Positions 1,794 to 62,354 of a stretch of DNA of 64,000 nt are shown here, one piece after another. The position numbers were made by a program, and so were the translations under genes. Under the pieces are notes generated by a model. That model saw only the letters and a program-made list of their open reading frames with translations, was not told the origin of the DNA and searched no databases. Each line of letters starts with the position of its first letter. The first letter of the stretch is position 1. The DNA comes from an uncultured Ignavibacteria bacterium (GTDB taxonomy: Bacteria; Zixibacteria; MSB-5A5; CAIYYT01), in contig CAZQBX010000003.1 in assembly GCA_964592145.1 (NCBI GenBank), positions 78,137 to 142,136 of the forward strand, given 5' to 3'.

Positions 1794-1810
1794 AATCTAC
1801 TAATGAGGAT

Positions 1811-4441: not shown

Positions 4442-4509
4442 TTCTGGTTTTGGAGTAATCGCACATTAGTTCGAATTTGTTTGGTTTTAGATATAACGGA
4501 GAGATCATC

Positions 4510-6489
4510 GTGAGACATATCAAGCGAGTTTGGGAGATGCCCCGGTTAACGGAGGCTCTGTTGGCCATCGCGCTGTTACTAAGCCTCCCGGCAATGCTGC
4601 CGGCGTCGAACAACGATGCGTGCATGGAGTGCCATTCGGATAATACTTTGACAGGGACAGACCGCGAAGGCAAAGAAGTCAGCATGTATGTGCATCTCGA
4701 TTCACTCGGCGCATCGCTGCACAGCGGACTTGACTGCGTGGATTGCCATGCCGACTTAGCCGGTGTAACCGACTACCCGCACGCAGATGCGCTGAAACCG
4801 GCGCAGTGCATAACCTGCCACGAGGATGTCAACACGGTGTTCATGACTTCGGCACACGGGTTGGCCCTGGACAATCCGAATTCACCAAACTGTCAATCGT
4901 GTCATGGCAGCCATAGTATCTTGCCGCAGTCGAATCCGGCATCATTGACTTCAGCGAAGAACTTGCCGCATACCTGTGCAACCTGCCATCACCGGATTGC
5001 GCTTAAGGCGGACCCGGATATTCGGATTGCGGATTCCTTTGACCGTTACATACGCGGTATTCACGCTGAAGGAATTCAGAAGGGAATTGGCTCAGCGGCC
5101 TCCTGCAATGATTGTCATGGCACACACGACATCAAGAAGGCTTCCGATCGCACTTCGATGGTCAACAAGCAGAATCTCCCCAAGACTTGCGCGAAATGCC
5201 ATAACGACATCAGCATTCAGTATTTTCGCGGGATCCACGGCAAGGCGCTGGAGGCTGGTATTCTCGACGCGCCGAATTGCACGGACTGTCACGGTGAGCA
5301 TGAGATTCGCCGCATCGGGGATCCCGATTCGCCGGTGAATCAGTCGAACTTAGCCGACTATGTGTGCGCCAAGTGCCACAATGATCCGCAGTTGATGGAG
5401 AAATTCGGGTTTACCGAAGGACGATTCACGTCTTATCAGGACTCATATCATGGTCTGGCGATTCGCGGCGGATCGATCAAGGCGGCGAATTGTGTTTCGT
5501 GTCATCGCGCGCACGATGTTCTGCCTTCGACAAATCCGGCGTCATCAGTCAGCAAAGAAAACATTGTCGAAACGTGCCAGACATGCCATCCGAAAGCGAA
5601 TCTGGCGTTTGCTACCAGCTACACTCACAAGACGGCGCAACAGGAGTTTAACCCGATCGATCGTTGGGTGCGGTTTGCTTACATACTCGCGATTGTGCTG
5701 GTCATCGGCGGCATGTTGGCGCATAACGGGATCATTCTCGGAGCCTTTGTTGTCCAGAAGCATCGGCAGAACAAGGCGCAGCCGACGGTGATGCGTTTTA
5801 CGGGCAACATGGTCTTTCAACACTTGGTGCTGACGGTCGCATTTATCACCCTGGTTATAACCGGTTTCGCACTGCGCTTTCCAGATTCCTGGTGGGTGGG
5901 AGTTCTCAACTTCTTCGGGATTTATGAAGATGCTCGTAGCGTGATTCATAGGATAGCTGCGGTGTTCTTGATCTACATCTCGATTCATCACGGCCTGTTC
6001 CTGTTCTTCTCGCAGCGCGGCAAAGAACAACTGCGCGGGCTGATGCCGGTGAAGCAGGACATAACTGACATTTTCCAGAATGTGAAGTTCCATCTGGGAA
6101 TGACGGACAAGCGCCCCGAATATGATATGTATGACTATACCGAGAAAGCCGAGTACTGGGCATTGGTGTGGGGTACGGTCGCGATGGTTCTCACTGGATT
6201 CGTGCTGTGGTTCCCGACGTTCTTCACGGGCTTCCTGCCGGCATGGGTTGTCAAGGTATCGGAGACCATTCATTATTATGAAGCGTGGTTGGCGACGTTG
6301 GCGATCGCGGTATTCCATTTCTTCTTTGTGATTTTCCATCCCGAGCAGTATCCGATGTCATTTGCCTGGATAACAGGCCGGGTGACCGAAGAATCGGTCA
6401 AACACCACCATCCGAAATGGTATCGCCGGATGTTCATGAAAAAGAACGGCGAGGCAAACAGTGTTGACGGTAAGAACGAAGAGAAATAG
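4510..6489 (+). CDS. Multiheme cytochrome c (11 CxxCH) fused to a C-terminal b-type-cytochrome-like membrane domain; paralogue of the upstream gene
   Basis: Signal peptide (MPRLTEALLAIALLLSLPAMLPA). 11 CxxCH motifs (CMECH, CVDCH, CITCH, CQSCH, CATCH, CNDCH, CAKCH x2, CTDCH, CVSCH, CQTCH). C-terminal TM helices with conserved His. GTG start at 4510 with RBS GGAGAG; alternative ATG at 4537. Confidence 0.8.
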   Translation: MRHIKRVWEMPRLTEALLAIALLLSLPAMLPASNNDACMECHSDNTLTGTDREGKEVSMYVHLDSLGASLHSGLDCVDCHADLAGVTDYPHADALKPAQCITCHEDVNTVFMTSAHGLALDNPNSPNCQSCHGSHSILPQSNPASLTSAKNLPHTCATCHHRIALKADPDIRIADSFDRYIRGIHAEGIQKGIGSAASCNDCHGTHDIKKASDRTSMVNKQNLPKTCAKCHNDISIQYFRGIHGKALEAGILDAPNCTDCHGEHEIRRIGDPDSPVNQSNLADYVCAKCHNDPQLMEKFGFTEGRFTSYQDSYHGLAIRGGSIKAANCVSCHRAHDVLPSTNPASSVSKENIVETCQTCHPKANLAFATSYTHKTAQQEFNPIDRWVRFAYILAIVLVIGGMLAHNGIILGAFVVQKHRQNKAQPTVMRFTGNMVFQHLVLTVAFITLVITGFALRFPDSWWVGVLNFFGIYEDARSVIHRIAAVFLIYISIHHGLFLFFSQRGKEQLRGLMPVKQDITDIFQNVKFHLGMTDKRPEYDMYDYTEKAEYWALVWGTVAMVLTGFVLWFPTFFTGFLPAWVVKVSETIHYYEAWLATLAIAVFHFFFVIFHPEQYPMSFAWITGRVTEESVKHHHPKWYRRMFMKKNGEANSVDGKNEEK

Positions 6490-6574: not shown

Positions 6575-9500
6575 CTATTTGCTGACCATCCAGAAATCGC
6601 GTGGATACAACCGATAGAGCCTTGCACCCGGCTCAACGCTTTGAAGGTAGCGCTCGTACGACTCGAATTGCTTTTCCGGACCCACGACGAAATTGACCGC
6701 ATTGTACTTGGTCACGGATTCCAATCCGCTTGGACCATAGTCGGGCAATAACAGACCGTAAACTGCTTCCATTCGACCCTGGACGCGGTCGTAAAAGTCA
6801 GGTTGTTTACGAAGTTCGAGAATGCCTTGACGAAATTTGGCAACGCTCTGGGCAGGAATATTATCAGCCAGGTCGCGTGCGATCGCCTCCCCACGCACTT
6901 CGTAAGTCATTGCCGCCCGATTGGCATTGAATGCCTGCGCAATCGTATATTCGCCGAGCGCCGGATCATGCGGGGCTCGCTTTAGTTCGCCGACAACAAA
7001 CTGCATTGTCTGGGCGAGATCGGGACAACGTTCGGCATAGTAGACAATTCTTCCGGTTGATTCGCGGCTGCGCAGGCCGTTGGAATAGGCGAGTCCGGCG
7101 CCCCAGGTCTTCATGAACATGCTGTGCGCACCGCCACCTCCGTAGAGTCGAGCGGCGAGGAAATCGATCAGGCCATCGGGCGTGTGTTCGGCGAAGCGCG
7201 CACAATCAGCGGTGTTGACAAAGACGCCTGATCGGGTGTTTTCGTTAACAAGACCGACATAAACCGGTGTGCCGGTATCGGAGGCGCGCTCACGCAATCG
7301 ATTGGTTACCAGTGGTTCGGTGCTGTACTGCTGACGTACAGAAGGCTTGGGGTCAAGCTTACCAATGATCCCGGCAAGGCGTGGCATCAATGCATCCTTG
7401 GTGGCGGAACTGGAGATCATAAATGCGCGGACATTGTCGGTATGACGAAGCTTCTCAAGTACTCCGCGAATTTGAGCCAGTGCAGTGTTGTCATCCATTG
7501 AGGCATCTCGTGCCGTTTGCCAACAAAGGAACTGCCAGTCGGTCGCAAGAGACGCATCGGGAATGTCGCTCAACACGCGCTGCATATCGCGGGCGACCTC
7601 CTGAATCAGTCCAGCATTGCGCGGATCGGCGATCAGGTGCTTAGCCGTGAGTTCCACGACGATGGCGGATGACCAGGCAAACTTCTGGTCACCCGAGATC
7701 GTCGCCAGAAGCTCGCTGAGTTGTTTGCGATCAAGTCCTGCGCCTTTGGCGGCCAGCGACTCCATAAACTTTACGAAACTGTCGGGTTTATTCGGGTCAC
7801 CGGCATCCTTGAGCATCCATTTAATGCGATAGAGATTGAATGCTTTGGTCATGAAGCAATCAGTCGCCAGTAACAGCGGAACATCCTGACGCCAGTATGC
7901 GTCGGCCGGGCCTTCGACCCAGGACTCTTCGGAGCCGCGCATGGTGCTGCGCAGACCGGAGAGGGTGTAGTCGATAGCGTCGCGAATTCGGGGCAGATTT
8001 TCCGGCTCGAGATATGCATCAAAGAGAACGTCGTCAAGCCAATCAAGTGCCGCGAGTCCCTCGGCTTGCGTGCTTCCCGATGTGCGCACGACCAGTTCAG
8101 CGCGCTGGGTACGGTAATTGACACTGGTATAGGCAGAAAGCCCGGAGATCTCCGACCGCAGGCGACTTTGCATTTGGTCGAAGGTCAGTTTGCCGCTGTC
8201 GGAGATCACGCCGATGTCAGTCAAGACTGTTGGAAGAGCAGAGATATAGATCAATTCGTTTTCCGGAACGACATCGAGGTTGAAAGCCAAGCCGACGGTG
8301 GCATTGGTGATGTTTTCAAACTTGGAGGCCACGACCTGGACTTTGCCGGCAATCGTATCAACAGCATACTTGAGCGGATCATCGAGAGTCATCGGCGGAT
8401 TCTCGACGAAACCAGGCATTTGAATCGTTGCGGCGACCGAGTCGAGTTCAGCGGTTTGTGCATCATACTCGGCTTTGAATTGCTGAATCGCCTCATCTTC
8501 CGATGAAACCGAGTAAATAGTCTTAAGGTTGGCGATGTAGGCATCCAGGCGTGCCTGCCGCTCCGCTTCTTGGCGTCCGATGAGTTCTGGATTGGCGACC
8601 GCGGCAACGGCATAGGGAGGAGTCTCAATCAGTCGCCATGCGGCGATGTAATCGCGCCAGATATTCTTGCTGTTGCCGAGCTGTTGGCGCGCGAAGGCGA
8701 TTTCATCGGCAAACGCCAGTGAACGGCGGAAGCCACCCGTCTTGTGCAGACGCTGGGTGTTGGTCATCCATTGCGCACCGGAACTCCGTTCGCCGAAGCG
8801 CGGTGGCGAGTTAAGGAAGGTGCGCGTTGCGCGCTCGCGCGAGGTCACGCGTTCAAGTGCGCGTCGGTTGAATTCCTGCAGTTCGGAAGAGCCATCCGGC
8901 AGAGCAGCGATCTTGCCGATTTCGTCAAGAATGACCTTCCGAATCGAGTCAATCATCTTGGGAGTACAAGATTCGCGTTTGATTTCATCGAAATAGATAT
9001 GGATCGGGTTGCCCTTCTCATTGCTCACCCAGCTCCCGATGCCGGCGGCGCCGACGTCTATCTGGCGCGTCTGCGAGTCAATGAGCCGATTGTGCAGGCG
9101 CGAAGTCTGGTCGCCGGAGAGGTTTTGCACGAGCAGCTCCAGCAGGTAGCGATCGTTATTACCAAGGTTGAACTGCGCCGGCCAGGAATAGACAAGCAAG
9201 CCCGGATCGCTGGGAAGTTGAGCCGGGAAATCGACCAGTTTGATCGTTCCAGGTTCAGCGGCGGCAGGAGCAGGAACTCTGTCGTTCAATGAAGCCGGGT
9301 CATCAATCATGACAGCATCCGGCTCGATGCGGCTTAGGATCTGCGAAAGTCGTTCAAGGCAAGTGGAGATCGAAATATCATCGGCGATTGAAATAATTGC
9401 ACCCATGTTGTTGAGGTGGTAGGACCCCTCTTGAAAGCGACGGAGGTCGGCGGGAGTCATCGTGCGAATCGCCGGGGGATACCCACCCGATTCGTAGGAA

Positions 9501-10156
9501 AGCGGATGATTTTCGCCGTAGACCATCCTTGCCAGCTGCAGCATCAGGTCACCCCAGGGACTTTCAAAGGAACGGACCATCTCGTTGTAAACGGTGCCCT
9601 TCTCTTCAAGCCCGATGACACCGGAAGCCTGGTCGATAGTCAAACCAACGTGGCAGACTTCACGGCGGATTTCTTCATCAGAATAGTTGGGATGAACCAG
9701 CGCGTCGAGTTTCGTTTCGAATAGTTTGAAGAAATTCTCGGTACCGGAACCGCAGTTGAAATGGTAACAGGTCTGGAGTTGCATTGTGAAAGCCGAGCTC
9801 TCGCCGAGCAGCATGTCTTCCATGGATGCGACATAACGACCCTTGGTGCCCTTCCCCAACAAGAGATGTTCGCAGGTATGCGGTTCACCCTGATCGGACG
9901 GCGGGAGGGTATTGAACCACATAAAGGCCTGTGGGAGGGACTGAATCGTGAAGAGATCGGCGACAAATCCGGAGGGAATATGGCGAAAGCGCGCGCCGAT
10001 TGCGGTTCTCGCCTCGTTTTCGTAGATACATTCTGTGCGGAATTGACCGAATTTTTGATCCGGTTTGAGATCGCTGTAGCCAGCGGCAAATGCAGCACTG
10101 GAGAGCAGCAGTATCGTTGCTGTCAATAAAATGGCGGTTAGTTTCCTGTTGTACAT
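6575..10156 (-). CDS. Secreted M16-family (pitrilysin/insulinase-like) zinc metallopeptidase, very large (1193 aa)
   Basis: Signal peptide (MYNRKLTAILLTATILLLSSAAFA); inverted zinc motif HxxEH (HTCEHLLLG) near the N-terminus. Confidence 0.7.
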   Translation of the reverse strand: MYNRKLTAILLTATILLLSSAAFAAGYSDLKPDQKFGQFRTECIYENEARTAIGARFRHIPSGFVADLFTIQSLPQAFMWFNTLPPSDQGEPHTCEHLLLGKGTKGRYVASMEDMLLGESSAFTMQLQTCYHFNCGSGTENFFKLFETKLDALVHPNYSDEEIRREVCHVGLTIDQASGVIGLEEKGTVYNEMVRSFESPWGDLMLQLARMVYGENHPLSYESGGYPPAIRTMTPADLRRFQEGSYHLNNMGAIISIADDISISTCLERLSQILSRIEPDAVMIDDPASLNDRVPAPAAAEPGTIKLVDFPAQLPSDPGLLVYSWPAQFNLGNNDRYLLELLVQNLSGDQTSRLHNRLIDSQTRQIDVGAAGIGSWVSNEKGNPIHIYFDEIKRESCTPKMIDSIRKVILDEIGKIAALPDGSSELQEFNRRALERVTSRERATRTFLNSPPRFGERSSGAQWMTNTQRLHKTGGFRRSLAFADEIAFARQQLGNSKNIWRDYIAAWRLIETPPYAVAAVANPELIGRQEAERQARLDAYIANLKTIYSVSSEDEAIQQFKAEYDAQTAELDSVAATIQMPGFVENPPMTLDDPLKYAVDTIAGKVQVVASKFENITNATVGLAFNLDVVPENELIYISALPTVLTDIGVISDSGKLTFDQMQSRLRSEISGLSAYTSVNYRTQRAELVVRTSGSTQAEGLAALDWLDDVLFDAYLEPENLPRIRDAIDYTLSGLRSTMRGSEESWVEGPADAYWRQDVPLLLATDCFMTKAFNLYRIKWMLKDAGDPNKPDSFVKFMESLAAKGAGLDRKQLSELLATISGDQKFAWSSAIVVELTAKHLIADPRNAGLIQEVARDMQRVLSDIPDASLATDWQFLCWQTARDASMDDNTALAQIRGVLEKLRHTDNVRAFMISSSATKDALMPRLAGIIGKLDPKPSVRQQYSTEPLVTNRLRERASDTGTPVYVGLVNENTRSGVFVNTADCARFAEHTPDGLIDFLAARLYGGGGAHSMFMKTWGAGLAYSNGLRSRESTGRIVYYAERCPDLAQTMQFVVGELKRAPHDPALGEYTIAQAFNANRAAMTYEVRGEAIARDLADNIPAQSVAKFRQGILELRKQPDFYDRVQGRMEAVYGLLLPDYGPSGLESVTKYNAVNFVVGPEKQFESYERYLQSVEPGARLYRLYPRDFWMVSK

Positions 10157-36324: not shown

Positions 36325-36876
36325 TTAGAAGCCCGCGAGCTTAATAATGCGATTTTCCTTTGCTCGCAGCACGCCGGGGAGGGGACGAATCCTATCATTA
36401 ATCAGCTTGTCCAAGGAGTCAAAACTGGTGGCCTCTATACGCAGGACGAGTGAGAATTGGCCGCTGGCGACTTCGCAGGAAGTCACAGAGCCTAAGACAC
36501 TTAGGGTGCTGAAGATGTCCTCAAAATGACGACGGTCGGTCTCGAGAAACAGGTAGCACTCGGCGCTGGGCTTGGTAGATTTAGTTGACTGCTCGTTGCC
36601 GTCATTGGCACCCTCGACGGCCAATTCGACGTGGCAGATATCAACTTCCTTCACACCCTTCAGAATTCGGATCGTGTTACTGACGAATTGATCGATATTG
36701 GCGCCCGGCAGATCTCGAATGAGAAGAATGATATCGTAGTCGCCGTCAACAGCGTCGGAAGCGAGAACCTGATCAAAACCAGCCAGGGCTTGCATGACTT
36801 CCAAACGATCTTGACGGTTGTGTACCTTGAGGAGTGCGTAACTGCCGGTGGGTCTTTCATTAGTGTCGAAGTCCAT
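36325..36876 (-). CDS. Hypothetical protein with two tandem Lrp/AsnC-type C-terminal (RAM) domains and no HTH
   Basis: Two about 75-aa halves with beta-alpha-beta-beta-alpha-beta-like pattern (YALLKVHNRQDRLEVMQALAGFDQV... and CYLFLETDRRHFEDIFSTLSVLGSV...); first gene of the nuoE/F-like operon. Confidence 0.35.
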   Translation of the reverse strand: MDFDTNERPTGSYALLKVHNRQDRLEVMQALAGFDQVLASDAVDGDYDIILLIRDLPGANIDQFVSNTIRILKGVKEVDICHVELAVEGANDGNEQSTKSTKPSAECYLFLETDRRHFEDIFSTLSVLGSVTSCEVASGQFSLVLRIEATSFDSLDKLINDRIRPLPGVLRAKENRIIKLAGF

Positions 36877-37062
36877 TTGTGCTCCTGTGCTCAGGCGGGT
36901 CGAAAGAGATTGTAAGTGGACGAAGTTAACGCCTGTTCACTTGAAATATATTAGTGGAACGGCCAATATTAAAGATATTTCTTGGCGAAGTTAGATAAAT
37001 TTGTTCACTTTTTTGCTCCCGCAAGCAGCTTGTTCAACGCTCAATTCTGACTTAGATTACCC

Positions 37063-40000
37063 TTGATGAAAGCAAGCACATCCGGAAAATGCCTTGGAAT
37101 CCCCTGGCTAATTGTATTGGCGATCATGACTTTAGTTGGATTAGTCGCCAATCCAGGATTCTCCGCGGATACGGGAGAAGAGCAGACCAAAGTTGACTCC
37201 CTTGAATTTGACAGTCGATTTGCGCTGTATCGATACCTGCAGCGCGGATTCGAAGAGTACTTCGACAAAGGTGATGTGAGCCGTTTAGCGGATTTGGAGC
37301 TTGCTGCCCGATATGTAAGTGAAACGTTTGGCGATGATTTCTATCTTCGGCAATGCGACAAGTTCAAGAACTGGCGGGAAAACTACCTCACAAAGCGTAG
37401 GCAACTGAAGGTCGAATATTCGCTGAATCAGCAAGGGCTGAATCAAGTAGACGTTCCTGCAGACACCTATTGCGATCAGATGATGAAATTGGCCGATGCG
37501 TTCCTTGAACTTGGAGACTCGGCCTCGGCAGTTAACTGTCTGCAAGTAGCCGGCGCAATGGGAGCGGGAAGAACCAGTTCGGATAACATAAGGGGATTGT
37601 TATCGAAATCGCTGGCCATCAGCCGAGCGATTGGCGACCTCGATGGGCTGTCGCGAAGTTATAATCTTACCGGAAGATTCCACGAGCAACGTGCCGAGTT
37701 CATAAAGGCGGGCGCCTATTTCGATTCGGCGCGCGTCATCAAATTCGAGCTTGGCGATCTCGCCGGTAGTGCCGACGCCCTGAACAACATCGCCTCGGTC
37801 TACCTCTCAATTGGCGACAAGGCAAATTCGTTGCGGTTTGCCGAAGAAGCACTGCAACAGAGGCGCGAACTTGGCGATTCAACGCAAGTTCTGCAATCGC
37901 TGTTGATGATAATCCCGGCCTTTGCCCGCGATGTTCCGGATTCGACTGCCCAACAATGGCTCAATGAGGCAGATCGACTTTCGCGCCTGCAATCGGAACC
38001 ACAACCGATGGAGCGACTTGCCTACAGCCGAGGAGTAATAGCCGAGTTGGGCGGCGAACTTGATTCGGCACTTAGTCAGTATTCGCAAGCCCTCGCCATT
38101 GCCACCGGTTCGAAAAATCACCGTCTAGCGCTCGCCATACTTCAGAACCTTGCCGCTCTCGAGTCGTCGATGGGACGTTTTTCGGAGTCTGTAGCTCATT
38201 ACGTTGCGGCACAGGAGCTTGCGACAAACTCCCGCAATAGTGCGGCGCTGGCGACTATCTACCACAATCTTGGCTCTTTGCACCAACGACTGGGTGATCT
38301 CGAGTTGGCGAGCGACTACTACCGCCGTGCTTTGGAAATCCGTCGCCAATTGGATATGAGAATTCAATCTGCAGAGACTTTAGGCAATTTGGCAGAGCTG
38401 TATTTGACGACCGGTGACCCTGCAACAGCGGAGGTGTATATCCGTCAGGCGATACAAGTCGCGCAACTTGCCGGCGATCGACGACGTCTCGCCTCAGCGC
38501 TCACACGATTGGCGCACCTCAGGCAATTAAATAAGGACTACGTCGGAGCAATGGCAGAGCTTGACAGTGCAGAGGCGGTTGAATCGGAATCACAAACTCC
38601 ACAGCGCCGGATCGATTATCTTTGCCTGCGGGCAGAGTTTTCACGCCAGGCACAAGAACTGGCACAGGCTGACAGATATCTCTCGGACGCTTACCGAGTC
38701 CTCGACTCATGTGCAACCTATACCAATCGCCAAAGGGTTGATATCATCAGAGCCGAATTGGCTGCCGACCGTAAGCGCTGGCGGGAGGCATACACCAGTT
38801 TGGCAACGGTCATTGCTCGCTCCGAACAGTTGCGCGGAAGTATTCCCAATCCGCAGCTGCGGACGAGTTTTCAGGGACGGTCGCGTTTTGTTTATGAGCA
38901 CATGGTCAAGACGCTGTTCAATCTTCGAAAGTCCGGCGAGTTTTCCGGAGGGGACGACTCTTTGCTGGCATATACTGAAAAGGCCAAATCGCGAGGTCTG
39001 CTGGACGCCGTGTATGGAATGGACGGACCGAACGATTCGCGGCAATGGGCGCATATGCGGTCGGAAGAGTCAAATCTGCTTCGAGAAGTTGAACGTGTTG
39101 AGCAATCGCTCGCAGACGACGGCGATGCCCAGTCGATCAAGCGCAAGATATCGTTGCTGGCGAATCTCGAAACGCGGTTGACCGACTTGCGGCTCAAGCA
39201 AGGCGCGGCGATTTCAACATCAGCCCGAATCTACAGTCCCCAACCGATTTCGATCCGGAAGATTCAGTCATCTCTACCAGACGAACGCACCGCGTTGATT
39301 TCATTTCTGCTTACACCTGAATCAAGTTACGTCATTCTCCTGGATCGTCGGCGGTTTACCGTTGAAGAGATTCCGGGTCGCAGCGAGATATCCGCCCGAG
39401 TTGCTGAATTTGCACGATTGATCCAGGTCTCGATCAAGGATGAGTCGCTTCTGGACAGCCTGGATGCAATTGCCGAATTGCTGGGCAAACAACTCCTCCC
39501 ACGGGAGTTGTTCGCGCAAGGCAACTACAATCATCTGCTGATTTGTGCAGATGGCATACTAAGCGTTCTTCCATTTGAAGCACTGCGTTTCAACGACAGA
39601 TACTTGATTGAAAGTTCGGCGATCGCTTCTGTGCCCTCGCTGTATCTGTACGGTTCAGGCAGCAGCAATTCGCAGCCACCTAAGGCGACGCGTCTACTTG
39701 CGCTCGCCGATCCACGCAACAACTCACAGTTGAGACAATTGCCGTTCAGCGCCAGAGAGGTTGACTGGATCAGCGAAGCCTTCGGCAAATCAAATTGCAC
39801 GATCCTGACTGCAACACGAGCCACCAAATCCGAATTGTTACGGCTGAATTTGTCTGATTACGGTATTGTCCATGTCGCGACGCATTCGACAATTAACTAC
39901 ACCGATCCACGACGATCCAAGATCTGGCTTTCGGCTGATTCTTCTCTGATTGATGGCGAAAGCATCCTCTCGTTGGCGGAAATCGGTGAACTCGAACTTT

Positions 40001-40302
40001 CGGCAGATCTGGTTGTCTTGTCATCCTGTGAATCCGGAGGCGGAAGTCTTGACATCGGTGAGGGCCTCGACGGCTTTGCCAAAGCATTCTTACAGGCCGG
40101 AGCGGGCAACTTGGTCGTTTCACTCTGGGAAGTCGAGGACTTCACCACAGCGGCATTCATGAAGACTTTTTATAATAACCTCAAGTCCGGATATGCTGAT
40201 GCTCTACGGACGGCAAAGTTGGAAATGATAACTTCGCCACGACTGCGGCACAGGCATCCCTACTACTGGTCACCATTCAAGCTGATTGTCGGTCGCAATT
40301 AG
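37063..40302 (+). CDS. Exported TPR-repeat protein with C-terminal CHAT (caspase-like) protease domain
   Basis: Signal peptide or TM (IPWLIVLAIMTLVGLVA). About 700 aa of TPR-like repeats (NLAALESSMGRFSESVAHYVAAQELA...). CHAT catalytic dyad context (IVHVATHS ... ADLVVLSSCESGGG) and CHAT C-terminal signature PYYWSPFKLIVG. Confidence 0.8.
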   Translation: MMKASTSGKCLGIPWLIVLAIMTLVGLVANPGFSADTGEEQTKVDSLEFDSRFALYRYLQRGFEEYFDKGDVSRLADLELAARYVSETFGDDFYLRQCDKFKNWRENYLTKRRQLKVEYSLNQQGLNQVDVPADTYCDQMMKLADAFLELGDSASAVNCLQVAGAMGAGRTSSDNIRGLLSKSLAISRAIGDLDGLSRSYNLTGRFHEQRAEFIKAGAYFDSARVIKFELGDLAGSADALNNIASVYLSIGDKANSLRFAEEALQQRRELGDSTQVLQSLLMIIPAFARDVPDSTAQQWLNEADRLSRLQSEPQPMERLAYSRGVIAELGGELDSALSQYSQALAIATGSKNHRLALAILQNLAALESSMGRFSESVAHYVAAQELATNSRNSAALATIYHNLGSLHQRLGDLELASDYYRRALEIRRQLDMRIQSAETLGNLAELYLTTGDPATAEVYIRQAIQVAQLAGDRRRLASALTRLAHLRQLNKDYVGAMAELDSAEAVESESQTPQRRIDYLCLRAEFSRQAQELAQADRYLSDAYRVLDSCATYTNRQRVDIIRAELAADRKRWREAYTSLATVIARSEQLRGSIPNPQLRTSFQGRSRFVYEHMVKTLFNLRKSGEFSGGDDSLLAYTEKAKSRGLLDAVYGMDGPNDSRQWAHMRSEESNLLREVERVEQSLADDGDAQSIKRKISLLANLETRLTDLRLKQGAAISTSARIYSPQPISIRKIQSSLPDERTALISFLLTPESSYVILLDRRRFTVEEIPGRSEISARVAEFARLIQVSIKDESLLDSLDAIAELLGKQLLPRELFAQGNYNHLLICADGILSVLPFEALRFNDRYLIESSAIASVPSLYLYGSGSSNSQPPKATRLLALADPRNNSQLRQLPFSAREVDWISEAFGKSNCTILTATRATKSELLRLNLSDYGIVHVATHSTINYTDPRRSKIWLSADSSLIDGESILSLAEIGELELSADLVVLSSCESGGGSLDIGEGLDGFAKAFLQAGAGNLVVSLWEVEDFTTAAFMKTFYNNLKSGYADALRTAKLEMITSPRLRHRHPYYWSPFKLIVGRN

Positions 40303-40365
40303 TGATAATGGGTTGAATCAAGACTTGCTGAACAAGTGATAGAAAGACGAAGCTTCCGGGAACGG

Positions 40366-41247
40366 CTATTCTTTCACCGAGACGTTGAAGTAAAACTCAT
40401 ACTCGGCCGGTACGATGCTGACGCCTTCGGGAAATTCTTCCTTGATCGATAGCGAGAAGCTTCCGCCTTCTTTAAGAGTATTGAGGGCATTCTGGTCGGT
40501 GACTTTGAGCTCACATTGATTGATGAATTCGGTCGGAAGGCACTCGAGTTGCTGGCCTTCGAGTTTAAGTGATTCGCCGCCACGGCGGATGAGATCGATA
40601 TTGTAATGATAATCGGGGAGTTCGACTCGATCGGTCGGGAATGCAAAAATCAGTTCGCGAGTGTTCTTCTGCAATGCGACCTGCATTTCCCGAACTTGTC
40701 CTTCATCCGCAATCGAGCGTTTTTCATTTTGCATTGAAAGTGAGACACGCACAATCAGCGAATCTTCGCCGGGTCGATTGAGCATAACCACGGCGCTGAG
40801 AACCAGAATCAAGGCAAGTGCAACGGGCGCGACAAATCTGGAGATTGCGGTGGAGCCGACCAGTTGCGAGAGCCAGCCTGGTTTCGCCACCGGCGCGACT
40901 GAAGCTGATTCTTCGGGGATATGCTTAACTGCGAGGCGGAGAAGTTCGACGTCCGCAGCACAAGATTGGCACTGCTGCAGATGACCGGCGATTTCCGAAT
41001 ATTCCGAGGAGAGTTTATTGATTCGTTCAAGTGCGAACCTGTCGAGAGTTTCAACGGCGGGATGCCCCGAAAAGTCGAATTTCGGCATCGAGCGGCGGAT
41101 CGAGTAGATTCCCTGCCAGAACGCGAATTCGGCCTGCAAACTTTCGGAGCTGGCAATTTCGGCTTCAATGCGATCTGCTTCTTCCCTACTCAATTTGCCC
41201 TGCACAAGCAGCGGGATCATTTCGATTATCTCGTTGTTGACACTCAT
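40366..41247 (-). CDS. Membrane-spanning anti-sigma factor candidate (ZAS-like HxxxCxxC) with periplasmic C-terminal domain
   Basis: HLQQCQSCAADVELL motif; single TM (VAPVALALILVLSAVVML); immediately downstream of and co-oriented with an ECF sigma gene. Confidence 0.55.
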   Translation of the reverse strand: MSVNNEIIEMIPLLVQGKLSREEADRIEAEIASSESLQAEFAFWQGIYSIRRSMPKFDFSGHPAVETLDRFALERINKLSSEYSEIAGHLQQCQSCAADVELLRLAVKHIPEESASVAPVAKPGWLSQLVGSTAISRFVAPVALALILVLSAVVMLNRPGEDSLIVRVSLSMQNEKRSIADEGQVREMQVALQKNTRELIFAFPTDRVELPDYHYNIDLIRRGGESLKLEGQQLECLPTEFINQCELKVTDQNALNTLKEGGSFSLSIKEEFPEGVSIVPAEYEFYFNVSVKE

Positions 41248-41301
41248 CGCCGAGGTCTCCTTTCACAGAGAACTGTCGACAGGCTCTTCGCGTGGTTCAT
41301 T

Positions 41302-41880
41302 CTAAATCAGCTTTTCTTTCATTTCCATAGCCGTTTTCTTGCACTCGTGGACTTTGCGCTTGACGGTGCCTTCCGGAAGGCCTAACTTTCCGCCTATCTC
41401 CTTGTAATTCAACGACTCCGAAAAGACCATCCGCCACAGTTTTTGACATTCCGGATCAATAGAACGGAATATCTTCTGGAAGATTTGATATTCTACCGAA
41501 CGTTCGTGAATGATATCGGGGGCTTCAGAACCGCTCGGTGCCGGCAGATCCTCCGGATCGGCATCGCGTTGAACGCGTTGACTTCGGACCTGATCGATAC
41601 AGGTATACCGGGCGACCCGTTGGACGTATGTGCGAAAAGTCGATTCACCGCGGAACTTGGCGGCTTTCAGAGAAGAGAACAATTTGAGATGCACGATGGA
41701 ATTGGTGTCTTCCGTCTCTTCGACAAAATGCCAAATTGACAGGCGCGTGACCTGATTGATCCAATTGTCGACTTGACGGTACACGTCTCGCTGGCCGGCG
41801 ACGTAACGCTTGGCGAGTTCAATTTCCTGTTCGGGTGTGGACTGCTTGAACTTGTCGATGATTGCCAGCATGACCGGCAA
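41302..41880 (-). CDS. ECF-subfamily RNA polymerase sigma-70 factor
   Basis: Region 2 (FRTYVQRVARYTCIDQVR) and region 4 HTH (ESLNYKEIGGKLGLPEGTVKRKVHECKK). Confidence 0.75.
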   Translation of the reverse strand: MPVMLAIIDKFKQSTPEQEIELAKRYVAGQRDVYRQVDNWINQVTRLSIWHFVEETEDTNSIVHLKLFSSLKAAKFRGESTFRTYVQRVARYTCIDQVRSQRVQRDADPEDLPAPSGSEAPDIIHERSVEYQIFQKIFRSIDPECQKLWRMVFSESLNYKEIGGKLGLPEGTVKRKVHECKKTAMEMKEKLI

Positions 41881-41995
41881 TTTATTTGACTATTGAAGTT
41901 TCGACAACTACAAACTATGTAGAGATTAATGACCGGAGGGATCATCTGGAGTTGCAGTGGAAATCTTAGAGAGAAAACGGTAGTTACCTGATCAT

Positions 41996-43300
41996 ATGAA
42001 GTTAGCAATCATCTCGGACACCCATTTCGGCGATCCAGATTGCCTGCTGGCAGCTTATCGAGATCAGTCGTCGCGAAGCGATCCAACAATTGGTTCGCGA
42101 TATGAGCAGTTTCGTGAAGCTGCGGGAGCCGACAATGACTTCTTAATCGTGCTTGGCGATATTCTGGATTTCTCGGTCTGCAGCTATCGCGAGACCTTCG
42201 AAGTTGCCCGGACGTTCTTTCGACAAGTGCAGGCAGATCGGATCGCGGAGAGTATCATATACGTCCCCGGCAATCATGATGCCGATGTATGGCATCTTTA
42301 CGAGTACGAAGTCAATATTATTCGGCGCATAGCGGCAGGAAAGAAAGCAAGCGACTTCCGCTACTCGATTCCCGGGATTATCGATGGACGCCGCGAGACC
42401 ACCGGACCACGGTTTCGATTGCACGGAGTAAAATCGTCGCCAAGGTACCGGTACGGTTATGGTGGAACATTCCTGGACAACCTGACTCTGGACTCATTGA
42501 AAGATGGATCGCGTTCCCAGGATTCGCTGACTTTCGCGCTGGCGTATCCCAATCTCTATTTGTTGACGGATCAGGAATCGATTCTGCTGACGCACGGACA
42601 CTATCTTGAGGAATATTGGTCGATGTTGGGTGAGTGGGCGATAGAGATTGCAGGAAGTGACATGGGCATTACCGGCACGCCAACAATCCGGGAGCTGGTT
42701 CAGATCAATTTTCCGTTGAATCAACTGGCGTGCAGCGGCGCCGGACAGGCTGGATTGTTGACTGAAAAAGTGATTCTGCCGCTGCAGCGTGAAACGCGCA
42801 ACCGCAACAGCCGCCGGGCCGAACGCTATCTTGACGGTATTCTTGAGCGGCTCGATAGGTTGATTCCCGGAAGGTACCTGATTGACGAACTCGTCAGTGA
42901 CGCATTATTGCAGAAACTGCGTTCACGAATTGTTGAAGCCATCCGCAGCGCGGAGCCGACGCGATATAACGACAAGTTCGTTCACGAGTCGCATGTGCAA
43001 GAGCGGTTTGCAAGGTACTTCCGATCATGTTGTACCGAGTTGACGGAGATTAGGCAGCCGGTACTGCCGGAACCAAAGAGCTTCGTGTTTGGCCACACGC
43101 ATCGTCCGATTCCCTGGCAAGACCGGTTTGGCACCGGAACGCCGGCTTTTGCAGCTGAAAACGGGAAACTCGTAAGATACTGCAATCTGGGAGGCTGGTT
43201 GAAGCGTCCGCAAGAAGACGTAACTCAAGAGTTTTGCGGCGCAGAAGTGTTAACTTTTGACTCAACAACTCAACGGATGGTGTCGCACCACGTATCGTGA
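41996..43300 (+). CDS. Calcineurin-like metallophosphoesterase
   Basis: LAIISDTHFG, GDILD, VPGNHDADV, LLTHGH metal-binding motifs; 434 aa. Confidence 0.75.
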   Translation: MKLAIISDTHFGDPDCLLAAYRDQSSRSDPTIGSRYEQFREAAGADNDFLIVLGDILDFSVCSYRETFEVARTFFRQVQADRIAESIIYVPGNHDADVWHLYEYEVNIIRRIAAGKKASDFRYSIPGIIDGRRETTGPRFRLHGVKSSPRYRYGYGGTFLDNLTLDSLKDGSRSQDSLTFALAYPNLYLLTDQESILLTHGHYLEEYWSMLGEWAIEIAGSDMGITGTPTIRELVQINFPLNQLACSGAGQAGLLTEKVILPLQRETRNRNSRRAERYLDGILERLDRLIPGRYLIDELVSDALLQKLRSRIVEAIRSAEPTRYNDKFVHESHVQERFARYFRSCCTELTEIRQPVLPEPKSFVFGHTHRPIPWQDRFGTGTPAFAAENGKLVRYCNLGGWLKRPQEDVTQEFCGAEVLTFDSTTQRMVSHHVS

Positions 43301-58919: not shown

Positions 58920-61900
58920 TCAAAAGCTATCTTTGAAATCGAAATTTGTGTTGCCGAGTTCTGATCTCATGAAATCGCGCAGAAATGTCAGATCAGTAAT
59001 CTTGAGACGTTTATCGGCCGGCATCAGGGCGATGGTGGCTTCTGTGGCGCCATCATCCTTGCCAAGGACATAGTTTGCGACCCAGACTTTGGACGTGTCG
59101 TTGCCGACTTCCAAAGACTTACCCGAGCGCTTGGATATTTTGGCATCATCGCGCAGCACGACCCGGATGTCGTAGTGCGTGACGGAAGATGCGATATTTA
59201 TGCGACCGAGCGCGATGATCGAAAACAACGTTCGCTGGAATGCCCGATCACTCTTGCCGGCATCCCCAGTGCGAAGCTTGTCATCCGGTAACAACATAAA
59301 CCCTGTACCGTTCAGGCCGCCAATCTCTTTTACCAAATCGGTAACCCAGGCCTCCCGAAGCGCCTTCGTCCATTTCTTGGACTTGTTGGTCGGATGGTCG
59401 ACGAATTCAAAGCCAAGTTTGAAGTATGCCGAGAGAATTCCGTCAAATGGTTTCGAGGTTCGCACTCCCTTGACCCTGATGAGATGGGCCGTTTCGTCAT
59501 GACCGATCTTATACAAGTTCAGATCGACAGCTCCGGTTGCAAGCGTAAATGGTTCCTTTGTCTTGAACGCGCGATAGATGTCACGGAAATCATCAATGAT
59601 GTGATAGGACAACTCCTTAACTTTCGAGATTCCCGCGTCGGTGAATTTAAAGAAGAACCGAACACGAAACTGCCGTCCGTTCAACACCGGCTTGAGTTTG
59701 TTGTCGTCCTTGGCAGCATCGTTAAGCCAGTTGACGAAATTCCACCAATAGCGCATTCGCGGAAGCGACATTGAATCGTTCATCATTGCGCGGCGCTCTC
59801 CACCGAGAGGCGCTCCGGGAATCGGTTGGCGAAACGCCGTCTGCGGCGACTTGAAATCTTCGCGGCGTTCGATGTATTCGTCGGGTTTACCGCAAGCGTG
59901 TCCGATTTCGTGTCCGACTACCAGATTGCTGGCTTCGACTGAATCGAGCGGATCGGTTTCTTTGCCGCCGCTGTCGGCGCGGGTCGCAAAGTCGCTGCGG
60001 TGCATTTGTGAATCGGTGAAGCCCATGAATGCAACATCGGGATTATTACTGACACTGACAATGCACTTATGTTGTCCGCCGCGGTTAGTCAATTTCGGTT
60101 CGAAGTAAAATACGGGCGAGACTTCCAGTGCCGGAGGATTGTCGGCGTCGAGCGGCTCTATCGTGTAGTCTTTGCGTTCCCAGTGAGTTTTGGCATTGCG
60201 AAATCCCTCCAAGGCGAACTTGCGAATTTCCGCCGCTGTCACCGCTGCTTTGTCGGTCAACTTGGGATCGGGATCAAAATGGGCTTTGAACCGGGCGCTC
60301 CAATAGATTAACAGAAAATGTCGCTCGAGATCGCCGAGCATCGTCCCGCGACGAATGTAGTGCGCTTCAAAATTCCCGGTGTTGAAATCCGCATACGGGA
60401 GCGATTTGGGATCACCCTTCTTGTTTGGTTGGAGAATGATTTCGGAAAAACGGACGTCGCGGTCGTTTAATACCGCGGCTCGTGCACCGATCACATCTTT
60501 TGCGCCCTGATTGCCGCCGGCCGGCAGTTTTGTGCGCTTGTCCCAGATGTCGAAGAAACCTGTGGAAACCTTGCGCGATGGCGCGCCCGGCGAGCTAACT
60601 GTCGCTTCGCCGGTCGCGAAAATCAACAGCCGCGGCTCTTGCGGTGTTTTCATAATCAGGTTTTCCGTGAGTGCTGTTGCCGTGTGATGCAAGAGTTGTG
60701 AATCCGGATCGAAGAGCAGAAGACGATTGTCGACGATGTGGAACAGTGCATAGCGTGAATCCTTGGACAGGGCGATGTCTTTATTACCGGTATCGCGATC
60801 ACCGATGTTCTGCCCGCCATTGGCATCAACCAGGACAATATCGTCAAGAGAGAATGTCAGTGGAAACTGCGAATCGGTAACAGTCGGCCCGAATGGTTTG
60901 ATCTTCTTGCGCTCCTTCATGACGGTTTCATATCGGTCGCCACTGTCCATGCTGCCGTCAAAACGCGTCCAGTAGTTCTTCGATGACCAGCGTTCAGGCA
61001 AGTCATAGAATTGCAAGCGTTCCTTGAGCGGGAGTTTTTCGATCTCGACGCGAGTCATGAAGATGATAGTCCCGCCGGATTTGTTCATTTTGATCCACGA
61101 ATCAGAAGTCTCGAATTCAAAGTGGATTTTCTTGCGCCGGTCGTCGTCGCGAACCTTGACGACATAGTTGCCACCGCTAAAAGATGTGCGAGCCTCGATG
61201 CTCTTGCCACTTTCGTCGAAGGCTTTGATGGTAAGGCCTTCCGGTACCGGGGTGATTGCCTGGGCAATCCGATTGAAGAAGACAAATTTCAGATGATAGC
61301 TGATAGCGAATAGATCAAAGGCATCGACATAGATGCGGTCAAAAAATGTCGTGGCAAAAATCGGAACGACTTCACTGTTCAGTTTCTTGGTGAAGCCGGT
61401 AGTAATGTTGATGTCGGGCAAATCACCGCCGTTGAAGAACAGGATCTCGACGCGACGATTCATTTGCGATTTGAAGTTGTCCTTCTGGCTGGCCTGAATC
61501 GGAAATGACTCGCCACAAGGAAGGATCTTTCGTTCGGTATTCGCGAAGCGCAGCTTGTCGCGTTTGTTGATTTTCGGCGTTCTCTGCGGATTGGGACTCG
61601 AGCAGGTTAAGCGCTTTTCGGGTCCTTTGGGGCCGCTCGACGAGCCGCGTGACAGAAATTCATCGATCTCCTTGTCATATAGATCAAACACCGCAATCCA
61701 GGCGACGATCGGCCATTTGTGTTGTGAGTCATTCTTGACTTTCGCCGCTTGCGAGTCGTCAATGCCGTTCGCCTTGAAGAAGTTGACAGTAGCTTCATGA
61801 GTCTTTGCGGTGTAACTATTGTTGATTTCGCCCGGATCGCAGTTGAACTCGGGACGCTTCTTGTTGTAGTGCGCCATGATCTGCTGATAGTCCTCGATGC

Positions 61901-62354
61901 GGTGCCGCTTGTGAGACAAGTCCGCCCACTCTTCCCGTCGTTGCTCCAGCAGGAACAGGACATTATTGCAGCGTTGCTCCGAGAGAATGAAGTTCATCTC
62001 CAGACCGCCGGAGGTATCGGTGTGGCCGGTAATCAGAACTCCGAGCGTGTGATGCTCTTCGAGGACAATGTGCGTGACGGCAATCGTCTGAAGGCCGCTG
62101 AGTTGGTTCTGCAGTTCCTGGCGATCCTTTTCTTCTTGCGTCATGTCGGGATCGGCAGCGGCATCCTGTGAAGAAGCACCCTTGGGCCCGGAGGGCATCA
62201 CCACGCAGCTGTCGAGATGGAAAAGAACATCTTCCATCTCGACAACCTTGACGAGAGGTCGGCGCAACATTAAATCGGCAGGACTCCCGGTGAATATTTG
62301 GCGGCGCTGCTTAAGTTCGCCGAAGCTCAATTGCTGTGGTTCGTTGATTGCCAT
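58920..62354 (-). CDS. Large (1144 aa) protein with N-terminal OmpA/MotB-like peptidoglycan-binding motif and a HExxH zinc-metallopeptidase motif; putative effector/toxin
   Basis: VLITGHTDTSGGLEMNFILSEQRCNNVLFLL matches the OmpA_C signature (GHTD...N..LSE.R...V); LVVGHEIGHACGKPDEY at about residue 830; no signal peptide; starts 12 nt after the PAAR gene stop. Confidence 0.5.
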   Translation of the reverse strand: MAINEPQQLSFGELKQRRQIFTGSPADLMLRRPLVKVVEMEDVLFHLDSCVVMPSGPKGASSQDAAADPDMTQEEKDRQELQNQLSGLQTIAVTHIVLEEHHTLGVLITGHTDTSGGLEMNFILSEQRCNNVLFLLEQRREEWADLSHKRHRIEDYQQIMAHYNKKRPEFNCDPGEINNSYTAKTHEATVNFFKANGIDDSQAAKVKNDSQHKWPIVAWIAVFDLYDKEIDEFLSRGSSSGPKGPEKRLTCSSPNPQRTPKINKRDKLRFANTERKILPCGESFPIQASQKDNFKSQMNRRVEILFFNGGDLPDINITTGFTKKLNSEVVPIFATTFFDRIYVDAFDLFAISYHLKFVFFNRIAQAITPVPEGLTIKAFDESGKSIEARTSFSGGNYVVKVRDDDRRKKIHFEFETSDSWIKMNKSGGTIIFMTRVEIEKLPLKERLQFYDLPERWSSKNYWTRFDGSMDSGDRYETVMKERKKIKPFGPTVTDSQFPLTFSLDDIVLVDANGGQNIGDRDTGNKDIALSKDSRYALFHIVDNRLLLFDPDSQLLHHTATALTENLIMKTPQEPRLLIFATGEATVSSPGAPSRKVSTGFFDIWDKRTKLPAGGNQGAKDVIGARAAVLNDRDVRFSEIILQPNKKGDPKSLPYADFNTGNFEAHYIRRGTMLGDLERHFLLIYWSARFKAHFDPDPKLTDKAAVTAAEIRKFALEGFRNAKTHWERKDYTIEPLDADNPPALEVSPVFYFEPKLTNRGGQHKCIVSVSNNPDVAFMGFTDSQMHRSDFATRADSGGKETDPLDSVEASNLVVGHEIGHACGKPDEYIERREDFKSPQTAFRQPIPGAPLGGERRAMMNDSMSLPRMRYWWNFVNWLNDAAKDDNKLKPVLNGRQFRVRFFFKFTDAGISKVKELSYHIIDDFRDIYRAFKTKEPFTLATGAVDLNLYKIGHDETAHLIRVKGVRTSKPFDGILSAYFKLGFEFVDHPTNKSKKWTKALREAWVTDLVKEIGGLNGTGFMLLPDDKLRTGDAGKSDRAFQRTLFSIIALGRINIASSVTHYDIRVVLRDDAKISKRSGKSLEVGNDTSKVWVANYVLGKDDGATEATIALMPADKRLKITDLTFLRDFMRSELGNTNFDFKDSF

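Follow-up and report, generated by a model that had tools for sequence, protein, structure and literature searches.

The window analysed here is the whole 64,000-nucleotide (64-kb) stretch of contig CAZQBX010000003.1, from an uncultured bacterium of the Zixibacteria lineage. Positions 37063-41880 carry three genes: a TPR-CHAT gene, predicted to encode an exported caspase-like protease with a long TPR-like solenoid, and, on the opposite strand, genes for a sigma factor of the extracytoplasmic function (ECF) type and a single-pass zinc-binding anti-sigma (ZAS) factor. Only 63 bp separate the TPR-CHAT stop codon from the end of the convergent anti-sigma open reading frame (ORF), and the 64 kb hold a single CHAT gene and a single ECF sigma gene. 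Beyond the window, TPR-CHAT genes and ECF sigma/anti-sigma pairs recur together in distant metagenomic loci; this association is strong and holds across different gene orders and anti-sigma families. The main interest lies in this general pattern, in which nearly half of the distant exported TPR-CHAT genes in the sample belong to sigma/anti-sigma modules.

The exported TPR-CHAT protein

The TPR-CHAT ORF spans 37063-40302 on the plus strand. Translation likely starts at the ATG at 37066, rather than at the TTG at 37063, which gives a coding region of 37066-40302 and a protein of 1078 aa. A first-pass annotation of this DNA had described 1079 aa, with about 700 aa of TPR repeats. The TPR-CHAT protein and its signal peptide are indeed present; the lengths are corrected to a likely 1078 aa and about 660 aa of TPR-like structure.

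The N-terminus, MKASTSGKCLGIPWLIVLAIMTLVGLVANPGFSA followed by D, has the look of a Sec-type signal peptide: residues 1-34 (37066-37167, plus strand) contain n, h, and c regions, and cleavage is predicted after FSA. Sec-type signal peptides of divergent sequence were found in 15/15 TPR-CHAT orthologues examined (e.g. MKKMTLLFATTLTLLSAASSASA followed by S in P0009). In the AlphaFold2 (AF2) model, the predicted local distance difference test score (pLDDT) is below 50 at aa 1-11 and 28-45. Because a signal peptide stands at the same end of every orthologue, the predicted export of the protein is well supported, and the earlier suggestion that it is periplasmic is borne out at the level of signal peptide and topology. 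Lpt proteins and a TonB-type outer-membrane receptor are encoded in the window and its relatives, so a periplasm is expected. The deposited gene calls of P0001 (identical to the window protein) and P0002 (81% identical) begin at Met22 and cut off the signal peptide (window 37063-37128 is concerned); with this start in the NCBI calls, the protein would look cytoplasmic.

A TPR-like helical solenoid occupies aa ~50-715 (~660 aa; 37213-39210, plus strand). It is recognized both by Pfam (TPR_12, TPR_1, TPR_8, TPR_MalT, and others, with many TPR families matching aa ~230-590) and in the AF2 model (overall pLDDT 84, predicted template modelling score 0.77), where ~33 consecutive helices at aa 51-715 (pLDDT ~90) are followed by an alpha/beta domain. 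The CHAT caspase-like domain (39460-40302, plus strand; aa 800-1076) matches Pfam PF12770 with 211.7 bits (cut-off 24, E 2e-62). The His and Cys contexts named in the first-pass annotation are correct: HVATHS lies at aa 936-941 (nt 39871-39888) and LSSCESGG at aa 985-992 (nt 40018-40041). Numbered from the ATG at 37066, the key residues are H936 (39871-39873), H940 (39883-39885), and C988 (40027-40029). Across 31 homologues, H936 and C988 are invariant and H940 is at least 90% conserved. The His/His/Cys motif of the domain is thus intact, and peptidase activity is predicted.

Structural comparison places the protein in the clan CD caspase-like TPR-CHAT family. A Foldseek search of the PDB with the AF2 model gave separase (9hma, 2.5e-15), Csx29 (8eey_B, 1.3e-14), and DdvA (8rw5, 2.6e-14; 8rot_A, 6e-14) as top matches; the separase, Csx29, and DdvA matches span E 1e-13 to 2.5e-15, and the 14-15% identity to DdvA is the highest among the top matches. 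Sequence searches of the PDB were less specific: TPR proteins dominated the matches of the full protein or its alignment, and phmmer with the CHAT region alone gave no match. In one relative (L011:13048-14055 and P0011, contig CAVOPW010000004.1) the TPR-CHAT protein is apparently encoded in two pieces, a 792-aa TPR part that lacks CHAT and a ~336-aa CHAT ORF; a frameshift, a pseudogene, or faulty assembly could explain this.

The sigma/anti-sigma operon

The operon lies on the minus strand. The ECF-type sigma gene (41302-41871, 189 aa) likely starts at the ATG at 41871, rather than at the TTG at 41880, and stands immediately upstream of the anti-sigma gene (40366-41247, 293 aa) with a gap of 54 bp. 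The sigma factor, which has sigma2 and sigma4 regions only, matches the ECF model TIGR02937 with 71.9 bits (cut-off 42.9, E 4.6e-20). Pfam matches are weak: Sigma70_r4 is barely at threshold (24.2 bits, cut-off 24.1), Sigma70_r2 falls below its gathering score, and the anti-sigma factor reaches 20.5 bits with zf-HC2, below the cut-off of 22.2. The assignment therefore rests on TIGR02937, the zinc motif, and topology. Judged by these features, the two genes are an ECF sigma/class I ZAS anti-sigma pair, with zinc and sigma binding predicted.

The zinc motif of the anti-sigma factor is H89LQQC93QSC96 (HxxxCxxC), and H62 is the likely fourth zinc ligand. These four residues are kept in 27/29 aligned family members (30-member alignment) and are lost in the L018 lineage. 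The proteins of that lineage, P0145 and P0149 (L018:10001-10882), carry H62K, H89K, C93N, and C96L; the gene still directly adjoins CHAT. In the AF2 model (pLDDT 81), a cytoplasmic N-terminal three-helix segment (aa 2-52) is followed by the cytoplasmic three-helix ZAS segment (aa 64-108; ligands H62/H89/C93/C96 at nt 41067-40960), one transmembrane (TM) helix (aa ~135-155, nt ~40845-40774), a juxtamembrane linker of ~8 residues, and a ~130-aa ectodomain. The ectodomain (aa 164-291, nt 40758-40369) is an immunoglobulin (Ig)-like beta-sandwich with conserved C236/C245; Foldseek finds only generic Ig-like folds for the anti-sigma factor (E ~4e-4).

Coordinates, TIGR02937, and the AF2 model agree with the earlier description of a convergent operon, 63 bp away, that encodes an ECF sigma factor and a membrane HxxxCxxC anti-sigma factor with a periplasmic domain. 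The placement of the ectodomain in the same compartment as the exported TPR-CHAT protein is supported.

TPR-CHAT and sigma/anti-sigma genes in distant loci

A general association between the two kinds of genes was sought in metagenome contigs. A scan with a five-sequence CHAT-domain alignment (A3) yielded 80 TPR-CHAT loci, whose CHAT domains are 30-44% identical to that of the window and fall into 52 clusters at 60% identity. ORFs were called and searched with a profile for ECF sigma factors, built by iteration from the sigma family of the window; a 158-aa family with a borderline match (E 7.7e-5) was excluded.

An ECF-like sigma gene lies less than 1.5 kb (nearest edge) from CHAT in 24/80 loci (24 in 168 kb), and in 13 of the 28 loci whose flanks reach 1.6 kb or more on each side. 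Sigma density falls steeply with distance, from 1.43 per 10 kb at 0-1.5 kb to 0.26 at 1.5-3 kb and 0 at 3-8 kb (195 kb of flank). As a control, 124 ORFs of 130-330 aa at least 1.5 kb from CHAT were compared with NCBIfam; the search gave three TIGR02937 matches, the same three as the profile, so the far-flank depletion of sigma genes is real. The candidates themselves match TIGR02937 at E <1e-5 in 21/28 cases and Pfam Sigma70_r2 in 16/28.

The anti-sigma partner recurs as well. Of the 25 loci with an ORF after sigma, 19 encode HxxxCxxC and a single TM helix there. The ZAS products are 227-332 aa long; their HxxxCxxC lies at aa ~30-120, with the TM helix 25-85 residues later, and the genes often overlap the sigma gene by 3-27 nt. 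L034-type loci have a different pair, a 350-aa sigma-like protein and a 420-447-aa zf-HC2 protein, convergent on CHAT. With these pairs included, a sigma-like and/or ZAS-like ORF is present in 38/80 loci. ZAS-like ORFs make up 18/111 ORFs within 400 bp of CHAT vs 6/353 elsewhere (11-fold, Fisher p 8e-8), and the association extends to 21 of the 52 CHAT clusters. A signal peptide stands at the start of nearly all sigma-linked CHAT proteins.

Gene order and partner identity both vary. CHAT with a convergent anti-sigma-sigma operon, as in the window, is the commonest architecture among linked loci (L027, L029, L051, L053, L054, L056, L091, and L094). In others, sigma, anti-sigma, and CHAT, or CHAT, sigma, and anti-sigma, follow one another on one strand, or sigma and CHAT diverge. 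The CHAT-linked anti-sigma factors belong to four or more families, between which no similarity could be detected apart from the zinc motif. When the window's anti-sigma factor is aligned with them by hhalign, its H62/HxxxCxxC stretch matches their Cys/His-HxxxCxxC; hhalign finds the ZAS motif only, and BLAST detects no homology between its ectodomain and theirs. At L090, a sigma gene 28% identical to that of the window (E 3e-25), with the same unusual motifs, is divergent from a distant TPR-CHAT gene.

An association that survives both order shuffling and partner replacement is a classical signature of a functional module. The functional tie is further backed by fused "Rosetta-stone" proteins: DdvA of Myxococcus xanthus and P0072, a 1308-aa homologue of the window's TPR-CHAT protein in which HVAGCGTC is followed by a TM helix and then by TPR-CHAT, a DdvA-like fusion. 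Where the first-pass annotation tied CHAT to the ECF/anti-sigma pair by proximity only, there is now an order-independent association in 80 distant loci, together with these two fusions.

Two further arrangements were observed at distant loci. In L021:6168-14481, L025, and L072:1949-8049, two TPR-CHAT genes flank or follow one sigma/anti-sigma pair. In one module family, a gene for an S41 (C-terminal processing, PDZ-containing) peptidase stands after CHAT (L061, L067, L070, L071, L082, L084 at 4035-5378, L088, L092, L094, and L096; anti-sigma family II). S41/Prc-type enzymes are site-1 proteases of other anti-sigma factors.

Linkage in homologous loci

The anti-sigma family of the window has only 32 members, at 40-91% identity. 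In ten Zixibacteria-type lineages, sigma, anti-sigma, and CHAT lie within 0-5 kb of one another, with the pair 0-5 kb from CHAT in L001, L002, L004-6, L009-15, L018, and L101. CHAT identity to the window is 81% in L001, 61% in L002, 54% in L004/5, 51% in L006, and 40% in both L007 and L008. The order in L001, L004/5, and L006 is Fdh-NuoF-NuoE-AsnC, then CHAT, u158, and an S8 peptidase on one strand, the anti-sigma and sigma genes convergent with them, and finally a metallophosphoesterase and PAS-LuxR. Direct adjacency of the convergent pair and CHAT is seen in L101 (63% anti-sigma identity) and L018 (45%), where it is kept though the far flanks on the sigma side differ. Four genes separate the pair from CHAT in L015 (59%), and no CHAT gene is visible in L016/17 (49%), where the contig ends 1 kb downstream. 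Directly upstream of the orthologous pair in those two loci (L016:4355-9250, L017:323-5218) lies a gene for a dockerin-bearing C25 gingipain-like peptidase of 1631 aa, a clan CD caspase-fold enzyme.

In most relatives, then, CHAT is followed on the same strand by a gene for a ~160-aa (158-aa) secreted protein, u158, and an S8 subtilase (L001:9286-11279, L004:9319-11285, L006:9330-11344, L008:9302-11289, and L015:13718-15720). In the window and in L002, CHAT abuts the anti-sigma gene and both genes are absent. No remnant of either is found at window 40303-40365, and both are also missing in L018 and L101. L009, the closest relative (anti-sigma 94% identical), retains u158 and, by position, S8 between CHAT and the anti-sigma gene; the 63-bp juxtaposition in the window is therefore recent and arose by loss of two genes. 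The 158-aa protein has no Pfam or NCBIfam match, and its resemblance to a subtilisin I9 propeptide is an impression that neither database supported. Decay of the L001 S8 gene, suspected from a short gene call, was rejected when tblastn showed the gene intact. A secreted serine protease thus stands beside CHAT in two lineages, S8 in Zixibacteria and S41 with anti-sigma family II.

Promoters and intergenic elements

Both transcription units are preceded by promoter-like elements, read directly from the DNA. That of the CHAT gene is TTGTTC-17 nt-TAGATT (37030-37058, plus strand) and ends 7 nt before the ATG at 37066; a generic promoter scan does not list it because its -35 box is weak. A TAGATT/TAGAAT box recurs ~6-9 nt before the CHAT start in L001 (corrected ATG), L004, L006, L007, and L015. 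The element of the sigma/anti-sigma operon is TTGTCG-17 nt-TAAATT (41879-41907, minus strand), also ending 7 nt before its ATG at 41871, and TTGnnn-16/17-TATATT boxes stand 8-9 nt before the sigma start in L015, L016, and L018. We infer that both elements are promoters of a housekeeping type.

The CHAT gene and the sigma operon (37030-37065 and 41872-41907; same positions in L001-L018) share the placement of a TAGATT/TAAATT/TATATT box 7-9 nt before the start without a Shine-Dalgarno sequence. Because the -10-like box ends 7 nt before its ATG, the sequence suggests that the CHAT mRNA is leaderless or near-leaderless, and leaderless transcripts may be frequent in the lineage. The upstream regions of sigma and CHAT show housekeeping-like -35/-10 boxes only; neither an ECF-type autoregulatory promoter nor a motif common to the two regions was seen there, and so they give no evidence for CHAT as a regulon member.

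An AsnC-family regulator gene (36325-36876), divergent from CHAT, is the most constant neighbour of CHAT orthologues. The AsnC-CHAT intergenic region (window ~36930-36990 and its equivalents in L001-L018) contains a strongly conserved motif, AAATATAT...GCCAATATTAAAG, which may be an AsnC operator or promoter. On the other side, a calcineurin-like metallophosphoesterase gene (41996-43300, plus strand) diverges from sigma across a 124-bp intergenic region and may be a target of sigma. The same divergent gene is found in L001, L002, and L004, and also in L099 (L099:2553-3965), a locus without CHAT. Farther away, window regions 1769-6489 (plus strand), 6575-10156 (minus strand), and 58920-62354 (minus strand) contain two adjacent multihaem cytochrome c/cytochrome b561-type fusion genes and two ORFs of more than 1100 aa without a Pfam match at E 1e-5.

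Proposed mechanism and alternative explanations

ECF sigma factors form the "third pillar" of bacterial signalling. To our knowledge, the activating protease and signal are not known for most ECF groups; likewise, CHAT-domain proteins are abundant in bacteria, and we know of almost none with a known substrate.

The three genes may form a three-component envelope signalling module in a two-membrane, Zixibacteria-type host. The ZAS anti-sigma factor would hold the ECF sigma factor at the inner membrane, its Ig-like ectodomain facing the periplasm, and the signal peptide would export TPR-CHAT into the same compartment. There, the TPR solenoid could recognize a cue, whether protein or peptide, or could dock on the ectodomain of the anti-sigma factor. 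This contact would activate CHAT as a site-1 protease to cut in the ectodomain or in the short juxtamembrane linker, after which an RseP-type site-2 protease and cytoplasmic proteases would free the sigma factor. Myxococcus DdvA is proposed to work in the same way, except that here the protease is a polypeptide of its own. To the established domain identities, export signal, His/Cys motif, topology, and recurrent genomic association, the model would add a physical interaction, cleavage of the anti-sigma factor, a signal, and a regulon. A functional tie between CHAT and the sigma/anti-sigma pair at this locus is given a probability of roughly 65%. That CHAT is the site-1 protease cleaving the anti-sigma factor is a more tentative proposal, held at somewhat less than even odds.

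Several observations weigh against this reading. In most relatives, u158 and S8 lie between CHAT and the anti-sigma gene; being interposed and co-directional with CHAT, they may be its primary partners. L008 has AsnC and then CHAT, u161, and S8 on one strand, followed by unrelated genes, so that a u158/S8-type pair stays with CHAT even without a sigma pair, and the CHAT gene of L007 follows chemotaxis genes with neither partner there. Conversely, L099 (anti-sigma 47%) and L100 (49%) have sigma, anti-sigma, and TatD in one direction, and CHAT was not found in L099 (8 kb of downstream and 4.7 kb of upstream flank) or in L100 (8 kb on either side). The co-occurrence in homologous loci that the first-pass annotation had proposed as a check is thus conserved in one Zixibacteria clade and absent in these four loci. 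Within the linked clade, the entire block from Fdh-NuoF-NuoE-AsnC-CHAT to sigma is syntenic, and its conservation therefore cannot separate function from inheritance; linkage in the window's own family alone is weak and ambiguous evidence for a functional tie. In addition, the periplasmic linker of the anti-sigma factor is short, the housekeeping-type promoters of CHAT and the sigma operon make no regulatory tie visible, and cleavage by CHAT is only a proposal even for DdvA.

Much of this would fit inherited synteny. TPR-CHAT would then work, or once have worked, with u158 and S8 in extracytoplasmic proteolysis, and the sigma/anti-sigma pair would be a stress switch in its own right, possibly connected with the metallophosphoesterase, which L099 keeps in divergent orientation without CHAT. 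Both halves of the block do occur alone (CHAT with or without u161 and S8 in L008 and L007, the pair with TatD in L099 and L100), and the 63-bp juxtaposition arose from loss of two genes still present in L009. However, a chance neighbour is made improbable by the order-independent association of unrelated exported TPR-CHAT proteins with ECF/ZAS pairs; the window shows the commonest architecture of that association, a relative of its sigma factor stands beside a distant TPR-CHAT gene in L090, and adjacency persists in L018 and L101 despite a different sigma-side flank. On balance, inherited synteny is considered an unlikely explanation.

A genuine link need not involve cleavage of the anti-sigma factor. 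CHAT could be an output of the sigma factor, a regulon member or effector protease with other substrates in the envelope or among secreted proteins, or an RseB-like non-cleaving co-sensor or protector working beside another site-1 protease. At many distant loci CHAT is contiguous and co-directional with the pair, as in an autoregulated operon with a regulator or target as third gene, and the second secreted serine protease (S8 or S41) that accompanies CHAT may make the cut or form a cascade with it. Genomic context cannot tell regulators from targets (Casas-Pastor et al., PMC7826278). Yet the strictly conserved catalytic dyad speaks against a purely structural role, and TPR-CHAT fused onto an anti-sigma factor, as in DdvA and P0072, fits a protein acting on or with the anti-sigma factor better than a mere target. 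The housekeeping-type, rather than ECF-type, CHAT promoter in the window's clade is weak evidence in the same direction. Linkage without cleavage is thus somewhat unlikely, and it remains the closest competitor to the site-1 protease proposal.

The first-pass annotation had spoken of Craspase-like logic without CRISPR. Its observation that gRAMP/Cas7-11 and a CRISPR array are missing is confirmed by negative direct-repeat and PADLOC scans: no CRISPR array, tandem repeat, or Rfam match was found in the 64-kb window, its large ORFs have no Cas or PADLOC matches, and PADLOC reports no defence-system match near the locus, only generic TPR and a weak BovA. A CRISPR-independent antiviral module derived from Craspase, in which CHAT would cleave a Csx30-like inhibitor and release a cytoplasmic RpoE-like sigma factor, could still account for the Csx29-like fold, and an RpoE-type sigma factor also occurs in type III-E loci (PMC10028731). 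The signal peptide, however, puts CHAT outside the cytoplasm, the anti-sigma factor is a membrane ZAS protein rather than Csx30, and the protein resembles Csx29 no more closely than it does separase or DdvA. Topology effectively refutes this explanation, which is regarded as extremely improbable.

Should the split module operate in this way, it would explain what a large class of secreted caspase-like proteases does and add a cysteine-protease route to regulated anti-sigma proteolysis. It would also offer simpler two-protein systems, with protease and substrate separable, for testing the model of CHAT as site-1 protease in DdvA. It would further suggest that protease-to-sigma wiring, as in Craspase and in CalpL/CalpT/CalpS of CRISPR systems, is a general bacterial design that reaches beyond defence. 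A wider generalization is speculative and falls well short of an even bet: a large share of exported TPR-CHAT proteins would be free periplasmic, ligand-activated site-1 proteases of a widespread three-component ECF system, with DdvA a rare fused derivative and the window its Zixibacteria example.

Comparison with known systems

Canonical proteolysis of anti-sigma factors is represented by RseA/DegS/RseP, RsiW/PrsW, and FecR-like/Prc, and the site-1 enzymes known to us are serine proteases or metalloproteases. The window shares with these systems a single-pass anti-sigma factor from which a dedicated site-1 protease in the periplasm would remove the ectodomain; it differs in that the enzyme proposed for this step is a cysteine protease of caspase fold that carries a large TPR sensor.

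Craspase (type III-E; Cas7-11/gRAMP, Csx29, Csx30, Csx31, and RpoE) has in common with the window the TPR-CHAT fold and a protease linked to release of an ECF-like sigma factor. It is cytoplasmic, is activated by target RNA on Cas7-11, and has Csx30 as substrate, whereas the window has an exported TPR-CHAT protein, neither Cas7-11 nor an array, and a membrane ZAS anti-sigma factor as putative substrate. Because Craspase is cytoplasmic and RNA-guided and cleaves Csx30, and because the locus has no CRISPR array or defence match, it is not the nearest analogue; the periplasmic TPR-CHAT of DdvA is nearer.

A link between ECF sigma factors and CHAT has been glimpsed before, since the conserved context of ECF54 in Actinobacteria includes CHAT, subtilase, and carboxypeptidase-domain proteins; the group is described as having no anti-sigma factor, and proteolytic control has been proposed (PMC8999054). 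The Zixibacteria relatives resemble ECF54 in having CHAT and a subtilase (S8) near sigma. Compared by published description, ECF54 differs from the window and the metagenomic modules, which have a ZAS anti-sigma factor, and the presence of that factor argues against membership of the window's sigma factor in ECF54. Full-text literature on the CHAT domain with ECF or anti-sigma factors returned only DdvA and CRISPR papers, and a description of a split three-gene module was not found in that search, which covered sources other than the ECF Hub group descriptions.

DdvA of M. xanthus is a ZAS anti-sigma factor whose ~900-aa periplasmic domain is TPR-CHAT; its authors propose, as an unproven step, that CHAT cuts the linker in trans and thereby permits RseP to act, and they find DdvA-like fusions in Myxococcota and one Comamonas only (PMC11506125). 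DdvA/DdvS and the window have the same parts: an ECF sigma factor encoded immediately upstream of its anti-sigma factor, a zinc-motif domain in the cytoplasm, a single TM helix, and TPR-CHAT in the periplasm with its conserved His/Cys dyad. The logic suggested for both is shared as well: CHAT would be a site-1-like protease ahead of RseP. In DdvA, TPR-CHAT belongs to the anti-sigma factor itself as its C-terminal domain, and this TPR-CHAT works in trans inside a dimer and has no three-helix motif; in the window, the protease is a separate secreted protein encoded on the opposite strand, and the anti-sigma factor has a small Ig-like ectodomain. DdvA controls a CBASS/CRISPR defence island, while no defence genes are seen at the window locus. 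With two genes, and with CHAT carrying its own signal peptide, the locus is not DdvA-type in the single-polypeptide sense. It is plausibly a split version of the same kind of system, working as DdvA does, and this split form is widespread in metagenomes, whereas DdvA-like fusions are reported from few taxa.

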